The notes beneath the pieces were generated by a model that was not told the origin of the DNA, made no database searches, and saw nothing but the letters and a program-made list of their open reading frames with translations. Shown piece after piece: positions 11,495 to 31,510 of a DNA stretch of 64,000 nt. Position 1 is the stretch's first letter. Every line of letters starts with the position of its first letter. The stretch covers positions 22,434,213 through 22,498,212 of the forward strand of contig OZ234493.1 of assembly GCA_965153455.1 (NCBI GenBank). The letters are read 5' to 3'. The translations under genes were made by a program, and so were the position numbers. The DNA is from Sphagnum compactum. Its lineage: Eukaryota.

Positions 11495-13852
11495 CTGCTA
11501 AAACCCTCCCTGTCTGTATGTTTGGGTCTTTGTCTTCTCTCTGTGTTCACTCTGCTCTCTCCACTCCCTTGCAATCATCTCTCTCCGCCAGCATCTCCTT
11601 CTACGTTTCAATATCCAAAAAACAAAGCTTGATCGGATTCCACCAACAAGACCTGCAGAAAAATGCCTTCTTCAGGGCTCCACCACCCATCTTCTTCAGC
11701 AACAACAAAACCCTGCAACGACAACAACTTCTTCTTTTTCAACCCTAATTGTGGACGCAAGCAAGCTCAAGACCTTGAGATCTAGAACTCAATTATTTTT
11801 CTGTAGGCAGTTGTGGGTGCAGAAACGAGAAAAGGGTTGGGTTCTCCTCCTCCGTCTCATCTTCCACTGTGATTTTCATGGCTGATGACATTTTCTTCAA
11901 TCTTTTTTCCCACTCTTTGTAACAAAGAGTGCATTGCAAAGCTAGCACTTGAAGATACCTAGCCTGCATCATCTGTCATATGAAGTGGATCTCTCCTGTG
12001 CAGCACAGATGAGAGAAGTACAGGAGAGATCAGATCCGATCCATCATCATCATCATCATCATCAACAACAAAAGTGGTGGGTAGGTCTTTCCAAGAATTC
12101 AAGATCAAGGTGAGATGATGATGGCCCCTGTTGTAACAAACAAACCACATTGTGGCTGACTGTATGGAGGGCTGACTGGCTGGCTGGCTTTGCTTGGGGT
12201 CCTTGCAGAATTTATTGTAATGTATGCAGATCATGGGAGTCTAGAATGTCTTGTTGTATTGGAGCCTGAAAATTTATGCATGTGGGTTATGTGCTGCTGC
12301 TATCTAACAAACATCTATTGCTGCTGCTGCTGCTGGCAACAGGCATCTATCTATCTCTGTGAGAAGGTTGAATGGCAGCTGGAGAGGAAAAGAGGTGTGA
12401 AGAAACAGCAGCCTGGTTTGTGGCATCTGGATATTGAGGTGCATAGTAGTGCATACATATTTTGTACTAGATGATCAAGACCAGCCTCAGATGAATTGAA
12501 ATCTGCACAACTGAAAGGGATTGTCAGGGCACATGCATGACAATGCAGGTATGTGCCATATACTGAATCTGTAGTGCATGCATGATGGTGAAGAAGAAAA
12601 GATGTAGAATTTGTGTCACCATAGCAAGATTCGACTGGGCTATGGCATTTGGGCTTCATCAAAACCACAGCTCCCTGGTACTGCACTGTGCAGTGTGGAA
12701 AAACAAAAACAAAATAAAATCTCCAAGCTTGTGAAAGATTGCCACACTTCCACAAACTTCCATTTCAAAAATTAGTTGGGGAGAGCAAATCATGGGTGAG
12801 GGATGCTGATCAATCACTTTCATCACTTTGAGGATAGGATGTGTGTTTGTTCTTGCGCAGACTATTGGTGATGATGCCCAGTATTCAATCTGTCTTGTCA
12901 ATCAATCACTGCGTCAAGTTCATTTTGTTTTGTAGCATATGTAGTGGTCGTATTATTACACACCACCATAGTTGAACGCCATCTCTGCTGTGGTACCCAT
13001 TGAAGAATGGCCATGGAGCTAGCTTCCTGTAGGTTTGATTTCCTGTCTCTACCATTTGTACCACAACAGACCAACCATATGGTGCCTCTTTTTTTTCTGC
13101 TCTTTTATGTACAAGGGTCTTCTGGAATTCTAACTGTGTGGAATTTGGCGGAACAATGACACAAAAGAGAAGAAAGCAGCATCCAAGCAAAGCTTATTTG
13201 CTCTAAAAGGGAGCTTGAAAAACAGGTGGAACCTGGGAATTCGAAATTCCTGAGAGAGAGGAGGTAATTGCCATGGAAAAAAGGACTTGATGAGCTCTTG
13301 TTATTCCTTGAGGTACGCTCTATTGGAAAAAAAAATTCTATGTTGACTTGCTTAATTCAATATAAGGCCTCATTGGGTTTAAAAAATTTGCAATCTTTGT
13401 TCATATGTAATATAGACAGAGAAAAATTCAGGAATCCACAAGCAACTATTTTGTTGGCAACCCATTTGAAGATAAATCCAGGACTTGTGAACTTAGTGGT
13501 CTAATTGTTCATACACTTGCAATGCTCTTGTTCCAAACTGCCAACTCCCCTGCTACATGTCAAAGCTTTCATCAAGGACTGCACTTATTCCTGTGTTTGC
13601 ACTAGGTGCAGGACTTCCAGTACAGGCAAGTGAGTGTACTGCAGTTAGCCCAGCAGCTGATCCATCACGCTCGGTTGAATCTTGATATTGCCTTCTCTGT
13701 GTATGTTGAAGCTGTTTAATCGCAGTGAACAAATTAATACAACAATTGTTGTTCATCAAGCACAAATTACACTGTCAGAAGAATAGAACATTGCACTACT
13801 ATGTTGAGAGCGAGTTGCAGCGACATGTCCAGAAAATGAGAGTCATCACATT

Positions 13853-14632
13853 AGTGCAAAGCAAAAACCATTACTAAAACCTCTCTTTTTATTGTGGTAT
13901 AATTATGTTTTGCTCTATTCAAAAGCCTAGAAACATACACTATTAGTTGATCACTCTTCCCTATTACATTCTGAGACATCATGCCCCCCACAACTAATAA
14001 GGATGCATCTGTATGAACATGAAACTTCACTTGCTAATTTGGTGATATCAATATTGGTGCTTCGATATTCTTATGTTTGATCAATTCCCAAGCCTTCTAA
14101 TATTCTTTTGTCCAAAGAAAAATCTTTGTCTTTTTAGTTAGTTTAGTGATAGGTGCCATAATAGCAACAAAGTTTTTGATAAAACATCTATAAAATTATG
14201 CCATCCCATTGAATATTTGAATCTATTGCGGATTGTTGGGTGTTGGCATTTTTACTATTGCTTATATATTCTTTGGATCTAGAAGTTTCCCTTCTTTGGA
14301 AACAATAAAACCCAAGATCATCCTTAAAAATATCATAAATGCACATTTGTCTGGATTCAAACTAATGTCATATTCTTTGCACTTTTGAAAACATAATATG
14401 AATTATTGCAGATGACTCTCCATATCACTATACACTATAAAATCATATAGGAATATCTTCATAAAAATGTCCAAATATTTTCTGAATGTTTTAGTAACAT
14501 CTCTCTAATATGTTGGAGGTCCATTTTTCATTCCAAATGGCATCACCTTCCATATAAAAGCCCCCTAGTTTGTAACAAATGCAATCTTGTATCTGTCCTC
14601 TCGAGTTATAAAGATTTGATGATATCTTGAGC
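13853..14632 (-). mobile_element. Ty3/gypsy reverse transcriptase-RNase H remnant
   Basis: One frame with stops: RYHQIFITREDRYKIAF...VMPFGMKNGP...IFLYDFIVYS...LNPDKCAF...FYRCFIKNF...APILISP...FHVHTDAS...NYTTIKREVL. Confidence 0.9.
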
Positions 14633-15065
14633 TGGAGTGGATCTACATCGATCCTCAATGAGATGGTGTAAATCTTCATCCATTAGCTCCATTAAAATCA
14701 TATTTTTTTGACCCTTATTCTTACCCTGATCCTTACCTTTCCCCTTTCCCTTATTGTTTTCTTCCTCTTGTGGCTTACCAACAAAGAAGCCTAATAGCTG
14801 GACGATGTTGGGATGGAAAAGTCCTGCAAGGTTATTCACCTCTTGGTGCAACCCACTGATCTCACTTGTTTCTATGATTTTGACTGCGATTTTGCATCCA
14901 AGCCAGTGTGCCTCGTGCACCAACCCATAAGCCCCCTTCCCCATCTGTTTCCCAAGCATAATTTTTCGTCTTTCTATTCGTAGATTGAGAGGGAATTCGT
15001 CCCCTGATGGTGTTCCCTTGAGCTTATCGATTACCATTGGCAGATCCTTTACTAAATCTTGCTCC
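14633..15065 (-). pseudogene. Truncated protein kinase (N-lobe only; TKL/Raf-like)
   Basis: GKGAYG glycine loop, IAVK lysine, HQEV alpha-C helix, HPNIVQLLG, MELMDEDL hinge; ends abruptly in gypsy RT sequence before HRD/DFG. Confidence 0.85.
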
Positions 15066-15069
15066 TTCC

Positions 15070-15745
15070 GAAAAAGTCTTTGCACTTGGCAAGGTTTGTG
15101 AATGTTGTTGATTGACAACTAACAATGGTGAAGCAAGTGATGTTTGCAATGCTAAAAATGGAATCACAATAGTAAACACACTCGTGCACCTTACATTGAT
15201 ATTTGTTGAGGATGACAATCCCAAACACTAGTTGGAGGAGCGACCTTATTAGAATCACTATGTATTTTTTAAAGCGTTGGTCATGTAAAGGAATGAATTG
15301 GATGTCTTTGAATGATGATGTGAAATCGACAATTGATGGAACATTAACATTGAGGAGTCCAAACATTGCTCCTCATTGTGGTGATGTTTATGGCTATGCT
15401 GCTTATTATGTTTGACGAAGTGGGTGCACACCTAATTTGAATTTGGGTCTAAGCAAACACTGCAATCCTTGCATAATAGCAAGCACATGCCATCATTACT
15501 GTTGAGAACAATGAGACCATCATTAAGGAGTAGGTTTGGTCTTTGGTAGGTGGGTGGGTCAATCAACATACCCAAAGACAATTGTATACTATAAAGTTTT
15601 TGCATGGTCATTAGGGTGTTGACTGACATTATGTAAGAGCTTTGAAGCCTTGCACAATGTGCTCTAGCATGACATTGAAGAATATCACCATGGGAAAATG
15701 TCATGAAGCAATTGTCGATGGGACAATGGAATCTGCCATTTGATG
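15070..15745 (-). pseudogene. Decayed Cys/His-rich coding fragment with a canonical C2H2 zinc finger
   Basis: FHCPIDNCFMTFSHGDILQCHARAH (15731-15657) matches F-x-C-x4-C-x3-F-x5-L-x2-H-x3-H; further Cys clusters LLCKDCSVCL, YQCKVHECVY and PCQVQRLF are broken by stops and frameshifts. Confidence 0.55.
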
Positions 15746-24286: not shown

Positions 24287-24541
24287 TGAATTAAAGTGAA
24301 TAATGAGGTGCATGTATTTGAGGTAGATGATCCAGATCACCCTCAGATGATTGAAGTTCGTGCAGAACTAAAGGGATTGCCAATGGTGAGAGTATGATGC
24401 AGGCTATATGCCACATGTAAATTTCCACAGGATGATGTGGGAGAAGAAAGTTGTTTCATTTGTATCACCATAGCAAGAAATTGGCTAATGCATTTGCGCT
24501 CATGAACACAACTCCTGATTCTCCACTCCAAATTTACATAA
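24287..24541 (+). pseudogene. DYW-domain fragment, inverted relative to the neighbouring PPR-DYW gene
   Basis: IKVNNEVHVFEVDDPDHPQMIEVRAEL...DAGY...HLYHHSKKLANAFALMNTTPDSPLQI aligns with 25700-25445 of the PPR gene; frameshifts; catalytic HSE changed to HSK. Confidence 0.85.
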
Positions 24542-25300: not shown

Positions 25301-28098
25301 TCACCAATAGTCCATGCAAGAACAAACACCATCTTCAAAGTGATGAAAACGATTGGCATCCCGCACCATTATGGCTCTCCCAACTATTTTTGAAATGAAC
25401 TTTGTTGAAGTATGGCAATCATTGCAAATGCGCAGATTTTTTCTTATTCGAAGAGGAGTACCAGGAGCTGTGTTGATGAGCCCGAATGCAATAGCCAGTT
25501 TCTCGCTATGGTGACACAAATGAAATACCTTTCCTTCCTCTTCAACATCATCCAGAACGAATTCTGTACAAGGCACATACCCTGCATCATGCATGAGACA
25601 TGACAATCTCTGCAGTTTTGCATGAATTTCATTCATCTGGGGGTGGTCTTCATCCTCTACTACAAACATATGCACCTCATTATTCACTTCAATCCAGGTG
25701 TGACCCGGCTGTTTCTTTGCACCTTTTTCCTTTCTCTGCCGTTCAATGTTCTCACAGAGATGCCTGTTTCCACCAGCAGCGTAGATGTTTGACAGCAGTA
25801 CATAACCAGCAGCATTTTCAGGATCTATTTCAAGAATTCGTTTTGCAATGCGTTCTGCCATCTCCACATTACCATGAATTCTGCAAGCGCCAAGCAAAGC
25901 CATCCAAGCAGCCACCTGTGGTTCACAGGGCATTGCCATGAGCATATTCTCTGCCTCCTGTAGATGGCCAGCACGGCCAAGAAGGTCAACCATGCAGGTG
26001 TGATGTTCCAATTTTGCAGGAATCATGTAGTCTTTGGTCATTGAAGCATACAAGCGCATGCCCTCATCCACCAGACCTGCATGGCTACAAGCTGACAGAA
26101 GACAAACAAAAGTGACATCATCTGGCTGTATACCTTCTTCACACATCTGTTCAAAATGTTTTAAAGCTTCCTTACCATGCCCATGCATGGCACATGCTCC
26201 AAGTATAGCATTCCAACTGACCACATTTCGAGATGGCATCTTGTTGAACACACTCCAAGCATCCTCATTGCTCGCACACTTTGCATACATGTCCACCAAG
26301 CTAGTCCCCACAAAGACATCAGACTCAAAACCACTTTGAATGATCTGCTGATGAACCCACCTGCCCTCTTGAAGTGCAATCATGCTGGCACATGCATTCA
26401 GCACCCCCACAAAAGTAACAGAGTTTGGCTGCACACCTTCCTGTCGCATTTGTCGGAATAGTTCCAGTGCCTTCTGGCCATGCCCACATTTCACATGTCC
26501 CAATATCATGGTGGTCCAAGTGACCACATCTCGAGATGGCATCTTTTTGAACACTCTCCAAGCATCCTCAAGGCTCCCACATTTTGCATACATGTCAACC
26601 AAGCTACTCCCCACAAACACATCTGTATCCCATCCACTTTCAATGATCTGCTTGTGAACATGCTTCCCCTCTTCAAGTGCCTCTATGCTGGCACATGCAT
26701 TGATCACCCCAACAAAAGTGATAGAGTTTGGCTGAACACCTTCCTGTTGCATTTGTTGAAATAGTTCCAGTGCCTTCTGGCCCTGGCCACATTTCACATG
26801 ACCCAATATCATGGTGGTCCAAGTGACCACATCTCGAGATGGCATCTTGTGGAACACTCTCCAAGCTTCATCAATGCTCCCACACTTTGCATACATGTCA
26901 ACCAAGCTATTCCCCACAAAGACATTCATCTCAAAACCACTTTGAATGATCTGTTGATGAACACACCTGCCCTCTTCAAGTGCCTCTATGCTGGCACATG
27001 CATTCATCACCCCAACAAAAGTGATAGAGTTTGGCTGCACACCTTCCTGTTGCATTTGGTGAAATAATTCCAGTGCCTTCTGCCCTTGCCTGCATTGCAC
27101 ATGTCCCAATATCATGGTGGTCCAAGTGACAACATCTCGAGATGACATCTTGTTGAACACTCTCCAAGCATCCTCAATGCTGCCACATTTTGCGTACATG
27201 TTAACCAAGCTACTCCCGAGAAAGACATCAGGCTCACAACCACTTTGAATGAGCTGTTCATGAACAAGCCTGCCGTTTTCAAGTGATCCTAAACCAGCAC
27301 ATGCCTTGACTGCCTGAACAAAAGTGAATTTGTCAGGACTCATTCCTTCTTGCTGCATTTGTTGGAAAAGCTGCATTGCCTTCTCATGTTGCCCAGCCTG
27401 TACATATTTTGTAAGCTTCCGATTCCATGCAAAAGGGTGCAATTGCACAATGCCTGGTGCCATTGCAGCCATCTCTGCTGCCACCCATGGTGGGTTTTGT
27501 TGGCATTCAAGCCAGAGTGCTTCCCCTGTCGTCTTATGTTTGAAATCTGGGTACCTTTCATTTTGCTACAACAAAGATCCAGGTCAAGCTGATCAGCCAT
27601 GCATTCTCCACATCCCAGGCATAACTATTATCATAAGAACAGAAAAAGGCTGCTCTGACCTTCTTCATCAGCATATTGCATCTAATTACCTTCTCAAGCT
27701 TACTACGACTATCCCACCAGCGCAAATGATGTGAAAGAACTTCTGCGAACATTCAGCCATAGCATGATAACAACCAAGAGAGAGCAACAAAATTGACATC
27801 AACAAGACATGTGAATTCTGACAGGATTGATGTCCAGTTACCTTCTCTGCTCTGTGATCCCACCATTGTGAAGGATCCATAAAGAACTCCCGCCACCGTT
27901 TCTCTCTCGGACCTATAGGTACTGCAGAAAAAGTTCCTTTCAAATCATATAGTTTGATCACATGGAAGCCATCTCTAGGTTCTGCGTCCCTGCACAGAAG
28001 GTGTCCAATTTTCGCTTCTGACGGCTTTCAGGTCAAAATCTCTCGGCCAGTAAATCAACCACACTTACGGTGAAAAGACGCCAGTAGACACACACAGA

Positions 28099-28131
<33 letters not shown>

Positions 28132-28414
28132 GGGAAGGAATAACGCAAGAAAGCTTACAACTACCTCTTTCTCCGACTGCCGCCTCTGTTTCTACCCCGT
28201 GCGCTCTGGGAAGAAGTGCTGTATACTGCAATCTATTTTGTGGGGTAAATTGGAATTGCGGGTGCACACAGAAGCGTAGCCGCAAGCTCCTCCTGGTTGA
28301 CCTCCCTCTTCTCCATGTGGTGGTGGGGCAGCAATTGCTGCTGCTGTCGTGGTCAAGCAAAGAGTCAGATCTTGCAAATGGGAATTGCACTTGCTGCACT
28401 GTTGATGAAGACAT
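25301..28414 (-). CDS. PLS-class PPR protein with E1-E2-DYW cytidine deaminase (organellar C-to-U editing-factor type), N-terminal transit-like peptide and OSB-type PDF motif; ~864 aa, 3 exons
   Basis: Exons 28414-28165 (aacaATG; Ser/Thr/Arg-rich), 27921-27842 and 27565-25301, joined by GT-AG introns in phases 1 and 0. 15 P/L/S motifs, PG box [19 protein letters not shown], terminal CSCMDYW. The large exon is secure; the two upstream exons are hand-predicted. Confidence 0.92.
26160..27370 (-). repeat. Intragenic tandem 303-bp (101-aa P-L-S triplet) repeats
   Basis: CAATATCATGGTGGTCCAAGTGAC recurs at 26501, 26804 and 27107 (exact 303-bp period). Confidence 0.9.
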
Positions 28415-28440
28415 TGTTGCTTCGCAGAAATATTGGCAAA

Positions 28441-28442
<2 letters not shown>

Positions 28443-28476
<34 letters not shown>
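28443..28476. repeat. (CT/GA)n microsatellite just upstream of the PPR start codon
   Basis: About 17 CT units; another GA run lies in intron 1 at ~28096-28131. Confidence 0.9.
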
Positions 28477-28480
<4 letters not shown>

Positions 28481-30684
28481 GCAATCCAAGAGCATCAAAA
28501 TCCACATACAATTCCCTCTGCAGCGTCCGAAGTCGACCCAAATGCGATCTCTCTCCCACTGAGTCAAAGAACCCTAGATTGAACCAGGTTGAGCAGCAGC
28601 GGCACTAAAACCCTCCAAAACCCCGGCACCCTAGAAGGCTGGAGCAATGGCCATAAGTTGCTACTGTTTGATAAGGTGAATGTGTTATATTGTGGGGACA
28701 TCCAATTTGTATCATTTCCATGGTAAATTTTCCATTTCCGATACAGAAGAGAGAACCTAATGATGGGTGCTTGGAACAGCAAGTGAAGCCGCGATTTCAT
28801 TGTTGCCTCTTTTGCAGACTCAAAATGTATCCTATATATAGTGCAATAAACCTTGTCAATTGCAATTCTTGAGGCAAATATAATCTACCCTTCTGATAGT
28901 CCAAGCAAATCTGGACATTTAGTAGAGCAAATGAATGTGATGAACTGAAAGACAACATAAAACAGCAGCGAAAACTGGCAGTTTACAGAAGAAAGAGGAA
29001 ACTGCACCTTAGGACATCCTACTGTTACCATCTATAGTCCTGCTCAACCCATGACATGCTTGCCTAAACATCCCCAAACCAAGAGCAGCAGGAAGCTGAG
29101 CCTGTGATGAAAAACTCTCCAGTTTCTAGCTCTGATCTCTCTCTCGTCCCATCTGTAGTGAAACTTGCCAGAGAAACACAATTGTGCTTCTTATTGCTGC
29201 AGTATTGTTGTGTTTCTTACAGTAGACGGTTTGAAAACAGTTGAAAACTTTGCAAAAACGTTCACCATCATCTATCAGTTATACCAGATGTGAGTGCTAT
29301 ACCATTTTCTTATAACATTCCATCAGTTGCTTTCATGTGCATCTCGTACTTTTGTGATGTTTCCCTATGTACTCACATCTATCTCCTGGTGCATTTGAAC
29401 TAGTGAATAAACCGTTGCCCCTCAGAATGTGTCATGCTTTTTGTTTTGTCTGCAATACACTTTCCAGTTGATTTTCAGATTCTGAAAAAATTGGATCTGA
29501 TAGCTGTCTCTATTGGTACTCTGATTTTCTTACGTCTGAGGAGATTTGCCAATTTGGTAATGAAATGAGACACGGGCCAGGATGCAAAGTTTTGGGAGGC
29601 TGATGATGTTGAAGTTTGCAAGAGATATGGCAGAAATAAGAATGCAGACGACTTTCTCTCTTCACTATCTTGTTCATGCAAATGTGGTTCCAACTAGCTT
29701 TTGTTTCTTTATCAGTGCAACAAGATCTCAAATGTTCTTGGCATAGAAACTTCAATCACGGGATTTCATGCTGGAGTTTCCTTAAGAATTATTCAATCGA
29801 GGAAGAATGCTCGACTGTGGTCTGGCACTAAACCAAGATTGCAGAAGTTGGTCTGTCCAATTTACCCTGAAGCAACCCAAGCAGACATTTGTCTTTCAAA
29901 GATCATGTACTCAAAGATGAGGGGAGGGGTTTTTGAAGTTATTTGCCCACTGGGATCAGGTCCTTTATGAAGGGTTTTTGCTGATTAGGGTCACGTCACT
30001 AATTGCATCATCTTCTCTAGACACTTCACTTCAGTTCTCTATTGTCTAGCAAAGGCTCTATTGTCAGCTGCCTTGACATTACTCGAGCAGAAATGCTCAC
30101 TGAATTGCAGGTACACTCAGTCTTTTGCTCATATCCAAAATAACTAATGCGCTATGCTTGTTCTCCCCTTTTTCATGGGAAAATCTCTTCTCTGATGTTC
30201 TCCATCACTGGCAATGAGTAAATAGGAATGCATCCTTGTATAGTGAATGAAAGAGCTATGCAGCTTCAAGTATTCCATGAACACTCTCTCAACTCCTCCC
30301 ATTCAATACATGTCACACAATAACAATTCTCATGTCCCCCAAACTGCACTTGGCGGTCCTGAACATAATCTAATGTTTTGTTTGAGGCACAGGAGGGATG
30401 AATCCATCATCCACCTGAAACGCACAAAGCTTAGTTGAGTACAGTGGAGAGTGCTATGCACCATACATTCATCCTTGCTATGGTGTAAACTTTGCACAAA
30501 GAATTGAAAAGTTAAACAGCTTCTCAGTAATGGGAACTTGAAAATACTTTTGTCATGAATGTCAGAAGATGTGTAGTGATCCTAAGGAAAGTGGAGACAT
30601 ACCATTTGAACTTCACCAGCTTCAGCACCTGCTTGAGTGAGAAGGCTTCCTGAATCTTCAAGGACACCCCATATTTTATGAGCA

Positions 30685-31510
30685 TGCAATTCAAGGCTCC
30701 AATTCAAGAATCTGTTGAACAATGAATTCTCCCATCTCTGCATAACAATGCATTCTGAAAGCAACTAGCAAAGCCCTCCATGCAGCCATGTGGTTTACAA
30801 ATTGTATGTCCTTCACCATATTCTCTGCCTCCCGTAGGTCCCCAGTATTATAACAGGATGAACCATGATGAAGGGGTAATATGTTCTAATTTTGCAGAAA
30901 TCATATAAGCTGTAGATGGCAGCATCACCAACAAGGTCAACCGTGGTGCACAGTAAGGTTGCAATTTTGCAGAAATTATATAAATTGTGATCATTAAAGC
31001 ATAGCAATGTGTGCCTTCATCCACCAAACTTGCAAGCCTACAAGGTGACAAAAGAAAAACAAAAGGAATGTCATTGGCTCTACACCTTTGTCACACATTT
31101 GTCCAAAATGTTTAAAGCTCCCTTACTATACTCGTGTCTGTCACAGCCTCCAAGTACGGCATTTTCCAGATGGCATCTTGTCAAACATTATCCAAGCATC
31201 CTCCATGCCCCCACATTTTGCAAACATGTCAAACATGTTATTCTCCACAAAGAGATCAGACTTGCAACCACTTTCAGTGATCTGCTTATGAACGAACACA
31301 CCTGCCCTCTTCACGTGTGATGATGCCAGTGCATGCATTAACCACCCGAGGCACAAAGTAACAGAGTTTGGTCGCACACCTTCCAGTTGCATTCTTTGGA
31401 ATATTTCTAGTGGGAACCTTCTGCCCTTGACCACATTCACGTGTCCCAATAAAATGGCATTCCAAGTGACCATGCCACCTGATGGCATCTTGTTGAACAC
31501 TTCCCCCAAC
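30685..31510 (-). pseudogene. Decayed PLS-PPR gene fragment (S-P-L-S...P2/L2/S2-E1)
   Basis: VFNKMPSGGMVTWNAILLGHV, MQLEGVRPNSVT, VHKQITESGCKSDLFVENNMFDMFAKCGGMEDAWIMFDKMPS, YMISAKLEH, AAWRALLVAFRMHCYAEMGEFIVQQILELEP; many frameshifts. Confidence 0.85.

Follow-up and report, generated by a model that had tools for sequence, protein, structure and literature searches.

On the minus strand of the analyzed window (the whole 64,000-nucleotide stretch of Sphagnum compactum DNA), a reading of the sequence from 28414 down to 25301 gives a three-exon gene, whose product, with the exon 1 donor placed at 28159, is 866 aa long and free of stops. The parts of this gene model are as follows:

28159-28414, minus strand: coding exon 1, with the ATG at 28414, encoding a Ser/Thr/Arg-rich transit-like peptide; donor T/GTAAGC after 28159, phase 1
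27922-28158, minus strand: intron 1 (237 nt), with a CT/GA microsatellite at ~28082-28143; acceptor ctttttctgcag/TA
27842-27921, minus strand: coding exon 2, which encodes the N-terminal half of the PDF motif; donor AAG/gtaact, phase 0
27566-27841, minus strand: intron 2 (276 nt, phase 0), which splits the 50-aa PDF motif; acceptor ttgtag/ at 27565
25301-27565, minus strand: exon 3, a 754-aa stop-to-stop ORF in frame with exon 2
27482-27565, minus strand: first part of exon 3, completing the PDF motif (non-PPR PDF profile, positions 23-49)
25886-27430, minus strand: PLS-class PPR array of near-identical repeated triplets (PF13041, PF01535)
25688-25876, minus strand: E motif (ORF residues 564-626; PF20431, E 6.1e-17, profile positions 1-63)
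25301-25582, minus strand: DYW cytidine deaminase (ORF residues 662-754; PF14432) and the stop codon (25301-25303)

The frame stays open with either of two exon 1 donors, both in phase 1, giving 866 aa (28159) or 864 aa (28165). A preliminary description of this DNA had started exon 1 at the ATG at 28414 and ended it at 28165; the start holds, but the donor is better placed at 28159 according to the alignment with annotated paralogues, residues 1-83 of which match 28414-28154 at 54-60% identity (tblastn). Exon 2 is 77-86% identical to exon 2 of the paralogues, and the start of exon 3 is 76-79% identical to proteins of S. magellanicum, S. fallax and S. tenellum (P0002-P0006) and 66% identical to P0007 and P0008. 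Since both introns are canonical (GT..AG) and the exons align one by one with their counterparts in the paralogues, the gene model is supported. When used as a query, the exon 1 peptide gave eight matches, all of them intron-blind ORF calls from short contigs, including P0336, which reads through intron 1. Additionally, a degenerate copy of exon 2 lies inside intron 2 (~27686-27760, ending at /gtaatt), and three PPR-DYW pseudogene pieces are located in the window.

Evidence on splicing comes from the polyA RNA-seq of a relative (run X24), in which 20 reads (14 starts) connect exons 2 and 3 at the codon of the 27842/27565 joint, as does one X1 contig; the joint coordinates in the reads are 27563 to 27841 (X24 and the X1 contig) and 27561 to 27842. 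At this joint GCA is found instead of CAA, so that the reads derive from a paralogue or orthologue and not demonstrably from the window copy. Read depth is strand-specific, on the gene's own strand, and amounts to 13-58 on exons vs. 0-2 in wholly intronic bins. Specifically, run X24 has a depth of 13-18 on exon 1, 1.96 in the bin 27921-28047 and 0 in the bin 28048-28174, and the depth in the intron 2 bin 27667-27793 is 1.5. Unspliced contigs across intron 2 are also present (X1 record 5, X2 record 14 and X4 record 22). Of the two junctions proposed for confirmation by RNA-seq, that between exons 2 and 3 is thus backed by the reads of relatives, and no exon 1-exon 2 joint of the window copy is among the RNA-seq reads listed. 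One X1 contig joins ~28166 to ~27990, which is out of frame and puts a stop in the frame of the ATG at 28414; this could represent an alternative acceptor or an indel in a relative.

The stop-free ORF of exon 3 carries the PPR repeats (PF13041, 2.1e-102 in nine stretches; PF01535, 2.6e-81 in 11 stretches), preceded by a conserved linker whose columns are nearly invariant across 33 family members, and continues through the E motif into a DYW deaminase that covers the full PF14432 profile (positions 1-93, E 1.5e-40). HSEKLA, CNDCH (CxxCH) and the terminal DYW can all be read in the sequence. The earlier claims that the motif is in frame with the PPR ORF and that the catalytic residues are intact are therefore upheld. 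The orthologue P0009 is identical at 702 of 723 positions with no gaps. Collectively, the locus is read as an intact nuclear gene for a PLS-E-DYW-type editing factor with predicted organelle targeting, a reading that, taken jointly with the role for the PDF motif proposed below, may be right or wrong with about equal probability.

The assignment of the split motif was examined with an HMM built from 222 motif stretches of non-PPR (OSB-type) proteins only. The joined product of exons 2 and 3 matches positions 1-49 of this profile with 73.6 bits (E 4.6e-25, Z=1), and, taken separately, exon 2 yields 26.6 bits for positions 1-21 and the beginning of exon 3 yields 46.2 bits for positions 23-49. 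The in-frame, phase 0 splice at 27842/27565 that had been predicted from the letters is supported by this score as well as by the relatives' reads. When the whole window is scanned in six frames, only these two ORFs match (E 2.8e-11 and 1.4e-7; next best E 0.33). Because each half matches separately and nothing else in the window does, the motif is not a product of chance. Conversely, a profile of five Sphagnum motifs retrieves 974 representatives at E<=1e-3, among them proteins named OSB1, OSB2 and OSB3 from Amborella, Asparagus, Populus, Euphorbia and Anthurium (E 1e-22 to 6e-47), so that the PDF identity proposed earlier is recovered in both directions. The window peptide fits the ~50-aa pattern W..F..P..WWD.R..K..PDFKHK..ALW..P.WV and retains all nine of the columns that are invariant across 35 diverse motifs (W7, D19, R21, K24, P30, F32, L41, W42 and P49). 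Judged by these profiles and residues, the peptide is a genuine PDF motif of the OSB type, and it continues in frame into an intact PLS-E-DYW editor. The 2025 copy of Pfam holds no model that matches the exon 2 pieces; the ESM Atlas tags the motif with PF30937, an accession absent from that copy, which suggests that a curated Pfam model may exist. At E<=1, neither the exon 3 ORF nor the one that spans exon 2 matches SSB (PF00436), which is also missing from the precomputed families of all 105 PPR-linked rows listed. Lacking an SSB/OB-like domain in these ORFs, the window protein is not an OSB protein.

Structure prediction of the motif alone gives one helix, a small sheet and a short helix with a pLDDT of 90.8. 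In the model of the full-length paralogue P0005, the motif (block-mean pLDDT 67-87) is located between residues 1-83, the equivalent of exon 1, which are modelled as disordered (pLDDT <50), and the PPR solenoid. As shown by these models, the predicted PDF mini-domain folds as an independent compact unit. Searches with the motif model found no match at E<=0.001 in the PDB (Foldseek) or in BFVD, and a best Z of 2.3 among 48,161 chains (VIA-align), and the motif profile found none among PDB sequences at E<=1; empty searches of this kind are not proof of a new fold. The ESM Atlas lists a viral cluster under the Pfam label of the motif (PF30937). This would hint at phage relatives of the PDF fold, which further searches did not confirm: none of 35 motifs matches PHROGs at E<=0.1, and tblastn against 50,697 phage records gave E>=4 only.

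The fusion is not confined to this locus. At least 19 S. fallax loci (row count) have the PDF-PPR layout, and the sources named comprise seven Sphagnum species, Diphasiastrum complanatum, Calypogeia fissa and Adiantum; the suggested search of bryophytes and ferns for proteins combining PDF, PPR and DYW thus succeeded and reached a lycophyte in addition. Among the 120 rows listed, 105 carry PPR families and 50 PF14432. The position of the motif is highly regular: in all 100 PPR-linked proteins of at least 400 aa, all motifs lie on the N-terminal side of the first PPR match, at a median distance of 16 aa (<=30 aa in 87 of the 100). A single motif is present in 116 of 134 PPR-linked proteins, as opposed to two or more in 132 of 164 non-PPR proteins, and some lycophyte and fern members have two or three. 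Phylogenetically, 57 of 60 PPR-linked motifs fall into one clade of 66 (FastTree support 0.79), the remaining nine members of which are fragments of 116-169 aa. Members sit in the public protein sets of Sphagnum, lycophyte, liverwort and fern as "hypothetical" or "unnamed". [quoted passage not shown] Full-text searches of the literature did not turn up the fusion, and the excerpts at hand of a 2026 OSB family paper and of a 2026 survey of editing-factor fusions contain none. The proposal of a possibly undescribed class stands with respect to the literature searched, but the fusion is no rarity of one locus and belongs to a large family in public protein sets.

What could a PDF motif do for an editing factor? 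In PPR tracts, the N-terminal repeats face the 5' side of the bound RNA, and thus a PDF mini-domain on the mature N-terminus, ~16 residues ahead of the first PPR repeat, would sit where the nucleic acid exits the tract in the 5' direction. At this site its conserved Trp, Phe, Arg and Lys residues could hold single-stranded nucleic acid regardless of sequence, which would increase affinity or prevent the target from folding; site selection would remain with the PPR tract and cytidine deamination with the DYW domain. On this proposal, to which we assign about an even chance, PDF-PPR-DYW proteins would be C-to-U RNA editors with a putative PDF single-strand grip at the 5' end of the tract. As the putative ligand, RNA upstream of the cis-element is ranked first and ssDNA second. 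PDF motifs are responsible for the ssDNA binding of OSB proteins, and that of AtOSB1 is sufficient for it (excerpts of PMC4166229 and PMC6963530). AtOSB1 and AtOSB2 prefer ssDNA over dsDNA or RNA (excerpt of PMC4166229), which favors a DNA ligand over the RNA reading. DYW editors of Physcomitrium work unaided in E. coli (excerpt of PMC6397227), and no PDF or OSB domain is named in the excerpted text of a review of Physcomitrium PPR proteins (PMC9459714); hence, editing as such does not require the motif.

The ssDNA preference also underlies a different reading, which we consider possible but rather unlikely, namely that the motif is a nucleoid tether that binds organellar ssDNA in transcription bubbles, R-loops or replication and recombination intermediates, thereby concentrating the editor at nucleoids and favoring co-transcriptional editing. 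Binding of ssDNA is the one activity reported for PDF motifs, and AtOSB1 and AtOSB2 prefer it to RNA (excerpts of PMC4166229 and PMC6963530); the residues invariant in OSB-type motifs are retained in the PPR-linked ones, and the two or three motifs of some lycophyte and fern members recall the OSB proteins. However, a mere tether needs no fixed site, and the constant placement before the first PPR fits a module acting on the same strand; the prevalence of single motifs among PPR-linked proteins likewise departs from the multiple motifs of non-PPR proteins.

The motif might instead be a protein-protein module that mediates oligomerisation or recruits a partner (an OSB protein, another PDF protein or an editosome component), replacing MORF/RIP helpers, which appears unlikely. 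MORF proteins belong to seed plants and all PDF-PPR proteins named come from non-seed plants, as such a replacement would have it. AtOSB2 is a tetramer (excerpt of PMC6963530), but this tetramer is not known to depend on the PDF motif rather than on the OB-like domain, and Trp, Phe, Arg and Lys abound on the conserved surface of the motif, a composition typical of nucleic-acid binders. Less probable again is that PDF-PPR-DYW proteins work at a DNA-RNA interface in organelle nucleoids, where the PDF motif would hold the displaced strand or other ssDNA and co-transcriptional editing might be accompanied by occasional deamination of DNA. If this were true, such deamination would be a route for fixing RNA edits in, or directing mutations to, the organelle genomes of early land plants.

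That the motif exons belong to no functional protein, the models being chimeric, the copy decaying or the real start lying at MAAMAPG (as in P0009), is very improbable. P0009, P0012 and P0013 do begin after the motif, one X1 contig has the out-of-frame joint, other contigs retain intron 2, and a decayed exon 2 copy and three PPR-DYW pseudogene pieces accompany the gene. Yet models of the P0009 type come from short contigs called without introns, prokaryote-style; the second half of the motif runs into the PPR ORF without a stop, the three exons are open with canonical sites, spliced reads of relatives join the halves at the same codon, and the motif is kept in four plant lineages, in more than 100 proteins from independent annotations. 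Finally, deamination of cytidines in single-stranded organellar DNA besides RNA, which ranks as the least likely of the roles first suggested (nucleoid or R-loop tethering, co-transcriptional editing and ssDNA deamination), is hardly credible. An ssDNA-binding motif does adjoin a cytidine deaminase, and designer PPR tracts can bind ssDNA, but the DYW domain matches PF14432 over its full length in an unremarkable way and has the customary HSE and CxxCH; the E motif is equally unremarkable, and nothing in the sequence distinguishes them from those of RNA editors.

Of the sequence-programmable RNA base editors, PPR-DYW proteins are the best understood, and those of mosses serve as stand-alone tools. 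A putative extra nucleic-acid-binding module conserved on many editors of non-seed plants has hitherto gone unnoticed, partly because an intron splits the motif and common domain libraries had no model for it. Should a PDF grip raise affinity or efficiency, it could be useful for designer editors. Whether the PDF motif, the known range of which now extends beyond OSB proteins, is truly DNA-specific bears on the function of the OSB proteins themselves, and a further question is whether editing is coupled to the nucleoid in these lineages.

Among known systems, OSB proteins share with the window protein the 50-aa PDF motif, including its invariant residues, and both are plant-specific and organelle-targeted (by prediction in the present case). 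OSB proteins, however, have a central SSB/OB-like domain followed by one to five C-terminal PDF motifs, whereas the window protein has no SSB-like domain and its PDF motif, usually single in the family, is N-terminal and followed by PPR-E-DYW; moreover, PPR-linked motifs form a clade of their own. PLS-E-DYW editors such as Physcomitrium PPR56 and PPR65 resemble it in the PLS array, the E motif and the complete DYW domain with HSE and CxxCH, and are likewise encoded by moss nuclear genes with an N-terminal presequence. Those described have a targeting peptide alone before the repeats, where the window protein has a predicted folded PDF mini-domain, and the extra domains given in the excerpted Physcomitrium PPR review are RRM, LAGLIDADG, SMR, NYN, CBS and SAP, with no PDF (PMC9459714). 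Maize PPR4, with its N-terminal RRM, and other RRM-PPR fusions similarly place a general RNA/DNA-binding module N-terminal to a sequence-specific PPR tract (excerpts of PMC9459714 and PMC13386178), but the module is of another fold and family and these proteins are mostly P-class splicing or stability factors rather than DYW editors. Lastly, the MORF/RIP helpers of seed-plant editosomes may offer an analogy as accessory elements that aid the RNA engagement of PLS tracts, although they are separate proteins of unrelated sequence.

The minus-strand gene ends in a 754-aa stop-to-stop ORF (25301-27565), which carries the second half of the PDF motif, then the PPR array and E motif, and finally a complete DYW deaminase. 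The deaminase is intact in its HSEKLA and CNDCH motifs, as the preliminary description had held, and in its terminal DYW, with a full-length Pfam match. The letters given in that description for both motif halves, gtaact, ttgtag and the ATG 28414 frame were all read as described.

Features of the PDF-PPR gene
28414, minus strand: start codon ATG, opening a Ser/Thr/Arg-rich frame
27919-27842, minus strand: first half of the motif, with the donor gtaact directly after it
Before 27565, minus strand: exon 3 acceptor, ttgtag
Within 25301-27565, minus strand: PPR array (Pfam PF13041, 2.1e-102; PF01535, 2.6e-81)
Within 25301-27565, minus strand: E motif (Pfam PF20431, 6.1e-17)
Within 25301-27565, minus strand: DYW deaminase (Pfam PF14432, 1.5e-40, profile positions 1-93)

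The gene model comes from aligning the N-terminal 170 residues of five annotated Sphagnum paralogues to the window: residues 1-83 fall on 28414-28154, the first half of the motif on 27919-27842, and the rest, from the second half on, at 27565 and below. The spacing between presequence and motif is two residues longer in the paralogues than with the exon 1 donor first proposed, 28165; a donor T/GTAAGC after 28159 regains the paralogue length, encoding Leu where the paralogues have Phe, and either donor is phase 1. Thus, the ATG and phase of exon 1 stand but its donor moves by 6 nt, the one correction to observations otherwise confirmed. Joined by script, 28414-28159, 27921-27842 and 27565-25301 give 866 codons without a stop (864 with the earlier donor). 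The PLS triplets (25886-27430, minus strand) are near-identical to one another, both in this gene and among its Sphagnum relatives (consensus of the family alignment A3), a likeness that points to recent expansion or gene conversion.

Parts of the stretch are present in 23 of the 24 RNA sequencing runs listed, moss metatranscriptomes included, with sampled-word shares of 0.23 to 0.39, which indicate RNA from relatives rather than from the same genotype. In X24, a polyA RNA-seq run from a relative, depth is 13-58 on the three exons and 1.5, 2.0 and 0 in wholly intronic bins, and first mates lie almost all on the plus strand, matching minus-strand RNA in usual stranded libraries. In X24, twenty reads beginning at 14 different places pass over 27564-27840 with one letter added, as does one contig of run X1; on the gene strand the joint reads AAG/GCA AAT (..EK/ANE..), as in paralogue P0004, and a second joint at this motif-splitting intron has yet other letters. 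Because the letters differ from the window copy, the intron position within the motif is established for family members and not strictly for this copy, and the proposed 27842/27565 junction is supported to that extent.

Three observations count against a clean picture. The joint between exons 1 and 2 of this copy is absent among the RNA reads listed, and intron 2 is unspliced in contigs X1 record 5, X2 record 14 and X4 record 22. Additionally, one X1 contig (252 nt, 7 differences, 97% alike) joins ~28166 to ~27990, skipping a CT microsatellite region; its ends are consistent with gt..ag (donor at 28165; acceptor just ahead of 27989), and the joint is out of frame with ATG 28414 and would stop that frame. 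It could represent an alternative acceptor or an indel in the relative. CT/GA dinucleotide microsatellites occupy 28082-28143 (intron 1) and 28434-28484 (just upstream of the start codon), and RNA reads are cut at them. Intron 2 also holds a degenerate copy of exon 2 (27686-27760, minus strand), which keeps a GT donor (gtaatt) and has the blocks AGTTCTTT, TGGTGGGA and GAGAAGGTAA in common with exon 2. Counted from a possible acceptor, cgcag, it would be 53 nt long, a length that would not keep the frame if it were included; an exon duplication or a former second motif may have left it behind.

The Pfam copy searched has no model for the PDF motif. A profile (A1) made from five Sphagnum motif stretches matched 974 of 1.84 billion representative proteins at E<=1e-3; of these, 306 reach E<=1e-10 and 29 reach E<=1e-30, and many have 2-13 matched stretches each. 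The clusters of six of ten representatives looked up name OSB1, OSB2 or OSB3 (members from Amborella, Asparagus, Anthurium, Populus and Euphorbia), and four of ten scanned have a sub-threshold SSB domain. In the reverse direction, an HMM trained on 222 motif stretches, all taken from non-PPR proteins, scores the spliced product of the window at 73.6 bits over all 49 positions (exon 2, 1-21; exon 3, 23-49), the profile check proposed earlier; when all six frames of the window are scanned, nothing beyond the motif halves scores (next E 0.33). All nine columns invariant in 35 diverse motifs are kept. On these profiles, the assignment to the OSB-type PDF motif is sound. The motif also occurs three times in P0046 (1526 aa, with a kinesin motor domain) and 13 times in P0014 from Kingdonia uniflora (1160 aa); either could be a chimeric gene model or a further architecture.

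Modelled alone with 35 aligned sequences (mean pLDDT 90.8), the motif has a helix at 2-12, two short strands (WWD, 17-19; FKH, 32-34), another bridge at 40-41 and a short C-terminal helix. No convincing relative was found among solved or viral predicted structures, which for a 55-residue model proves little. In the full-length model of paralogue P0005, the motif (block-mean pLDDT 67-87) lies between disordered residues 1-83 and the PPR solenoid, which begins at ~residue 152. On the aligned part, the ESM Atlas places the label PF30937 on five clusters: three with PPR proteins (127, 63 and 57 members), one with SSB (71 members) and one viral. Structural neighbours of P0005 84-140 there include a bacterial Rad52/Rad22 cluster (TM 0.45) and four clusters of phage (Uroviricota) hypothetical proteins (TM by query 0.53-0.77), of which one has the PF30937 label; PHROGs, phage tblastn and BFVD gave no confirmation of a phage link.

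A word-seeded search for longer proteins, biased towards Sphagnum-like motifs, gave 189 matches at E<=1e-5 among 289 candidates. Among the 120 listed, 105 have PPR families and 50 the DYW family; the 15 without PPR families are 13 fragments of <=220 aa and two angiosperm OSB-type proteins. Named sources of the fusion comprise seven Sphagnum species, a lycophyte (Diphasiastrum complanatum), a liverwort (Calypogeia fissa) and a fern (Adiantum capillus-veneris), with at least 19 loci in S. fallax, at least 12 in S. magellanicum and, among these matches, at least eight in Diphasiastrum, for which another protein listing adds six. PPR families occur in all eight non-redundant PPR-linked representatives, the E motif in five and the DYW domain in two. 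PPR-linked proteins (n=134) carry one motif in 116 cases, two in 10 and three in 8, and 132 of 164 non-PPR proteins carry at least two. A FastTree built from 291 motif stretches (filtered below 80% identity) groups 57 of 60 PPR-linked motifs in one 66-member clade with support 0.79, whose other nine members are fragments of 116-169 aa; the three motifs left outside all belong to P0024. A single origin of the PPR-linked motifs is likely, though not proven, since 50 columns give a weak tree and most of the OSB motifs are from other taxa. The window also holds decayed PPR/DYW fragments at 12326-12868 (plus), 24290-24534 (plus) and 30694-31500 (minus), with stops or frame breaks and 36-66% identity to the intact gene; the six-frame HMM scan found no PDF motif beside them. 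An ORF at 14606-15118 (minus) with protein-kinase-like sequence (..GKGAYGLVHEAHWLGCKIAVKII..) is probably an exon of a neighbouring gene.

In PPR-RNA complexes, the place before the first PPR corresponds to the 5' end of the bound strand. In all 100 PPR-linked proteins of at least 400 aa, every motif lies N-terminal of the first PPR match (median gap 16 aa; <=30 aa in 87), a fixed place that would put it at that end, where it might give the protein an additional hold on the single strand that does not depend on sequence. Because this place goes together with conserved aromatic and basic residues, such a grip is the most economical reading, to which we give about an even chance. The main rival, that the motif tethers the protein to nucleoids or ssDNA, is rather unlikely. 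In its favour, reviews ascribe ssDNA binding of OSB proteins to PDF motifs, that of AtOSB1 being enough alone (PMC4166229, PMC6963530), and report that AtOSB1 and AtOSB2 prefer ssDNA over dsDNA or RNA (PMC4166229). A protein-protein role is improbable. That the gene is an artefact or a decaying copy is very improbable, and DNA deamination by the fusion protein is the least probable of these readings.

Literature naming the 'PDF motif', in a search of openly available full texts, includes none on PPR proteins; 'PDF domain' with 'pentatricopeptide' returned nothing, and 'DYW' with 'OSB1' irrelevant literature only. The portions consulted of a 2026 OSB family study and of a 2026 survey of editing-factor fusions (PMC13386178) contain no 'PPR' and no 'OSB' or 'PDF', respectively. 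Within these limits the PDF-PPR architecture is undescribed. The earlier interpretation of a new class of editors is therefore partly supported: profiles in both directions identify the motif and the literature searched does not describe the architecture, but such proteins are already public, in many loci, as hypothetical proteins. Compared with known systems, the gene lacks the SSB-like domain that would make it an OSB, and the extra domains of Physcomitrium PPR proteins, in the part consulted of a review (PMC9459714), are of other kinds.
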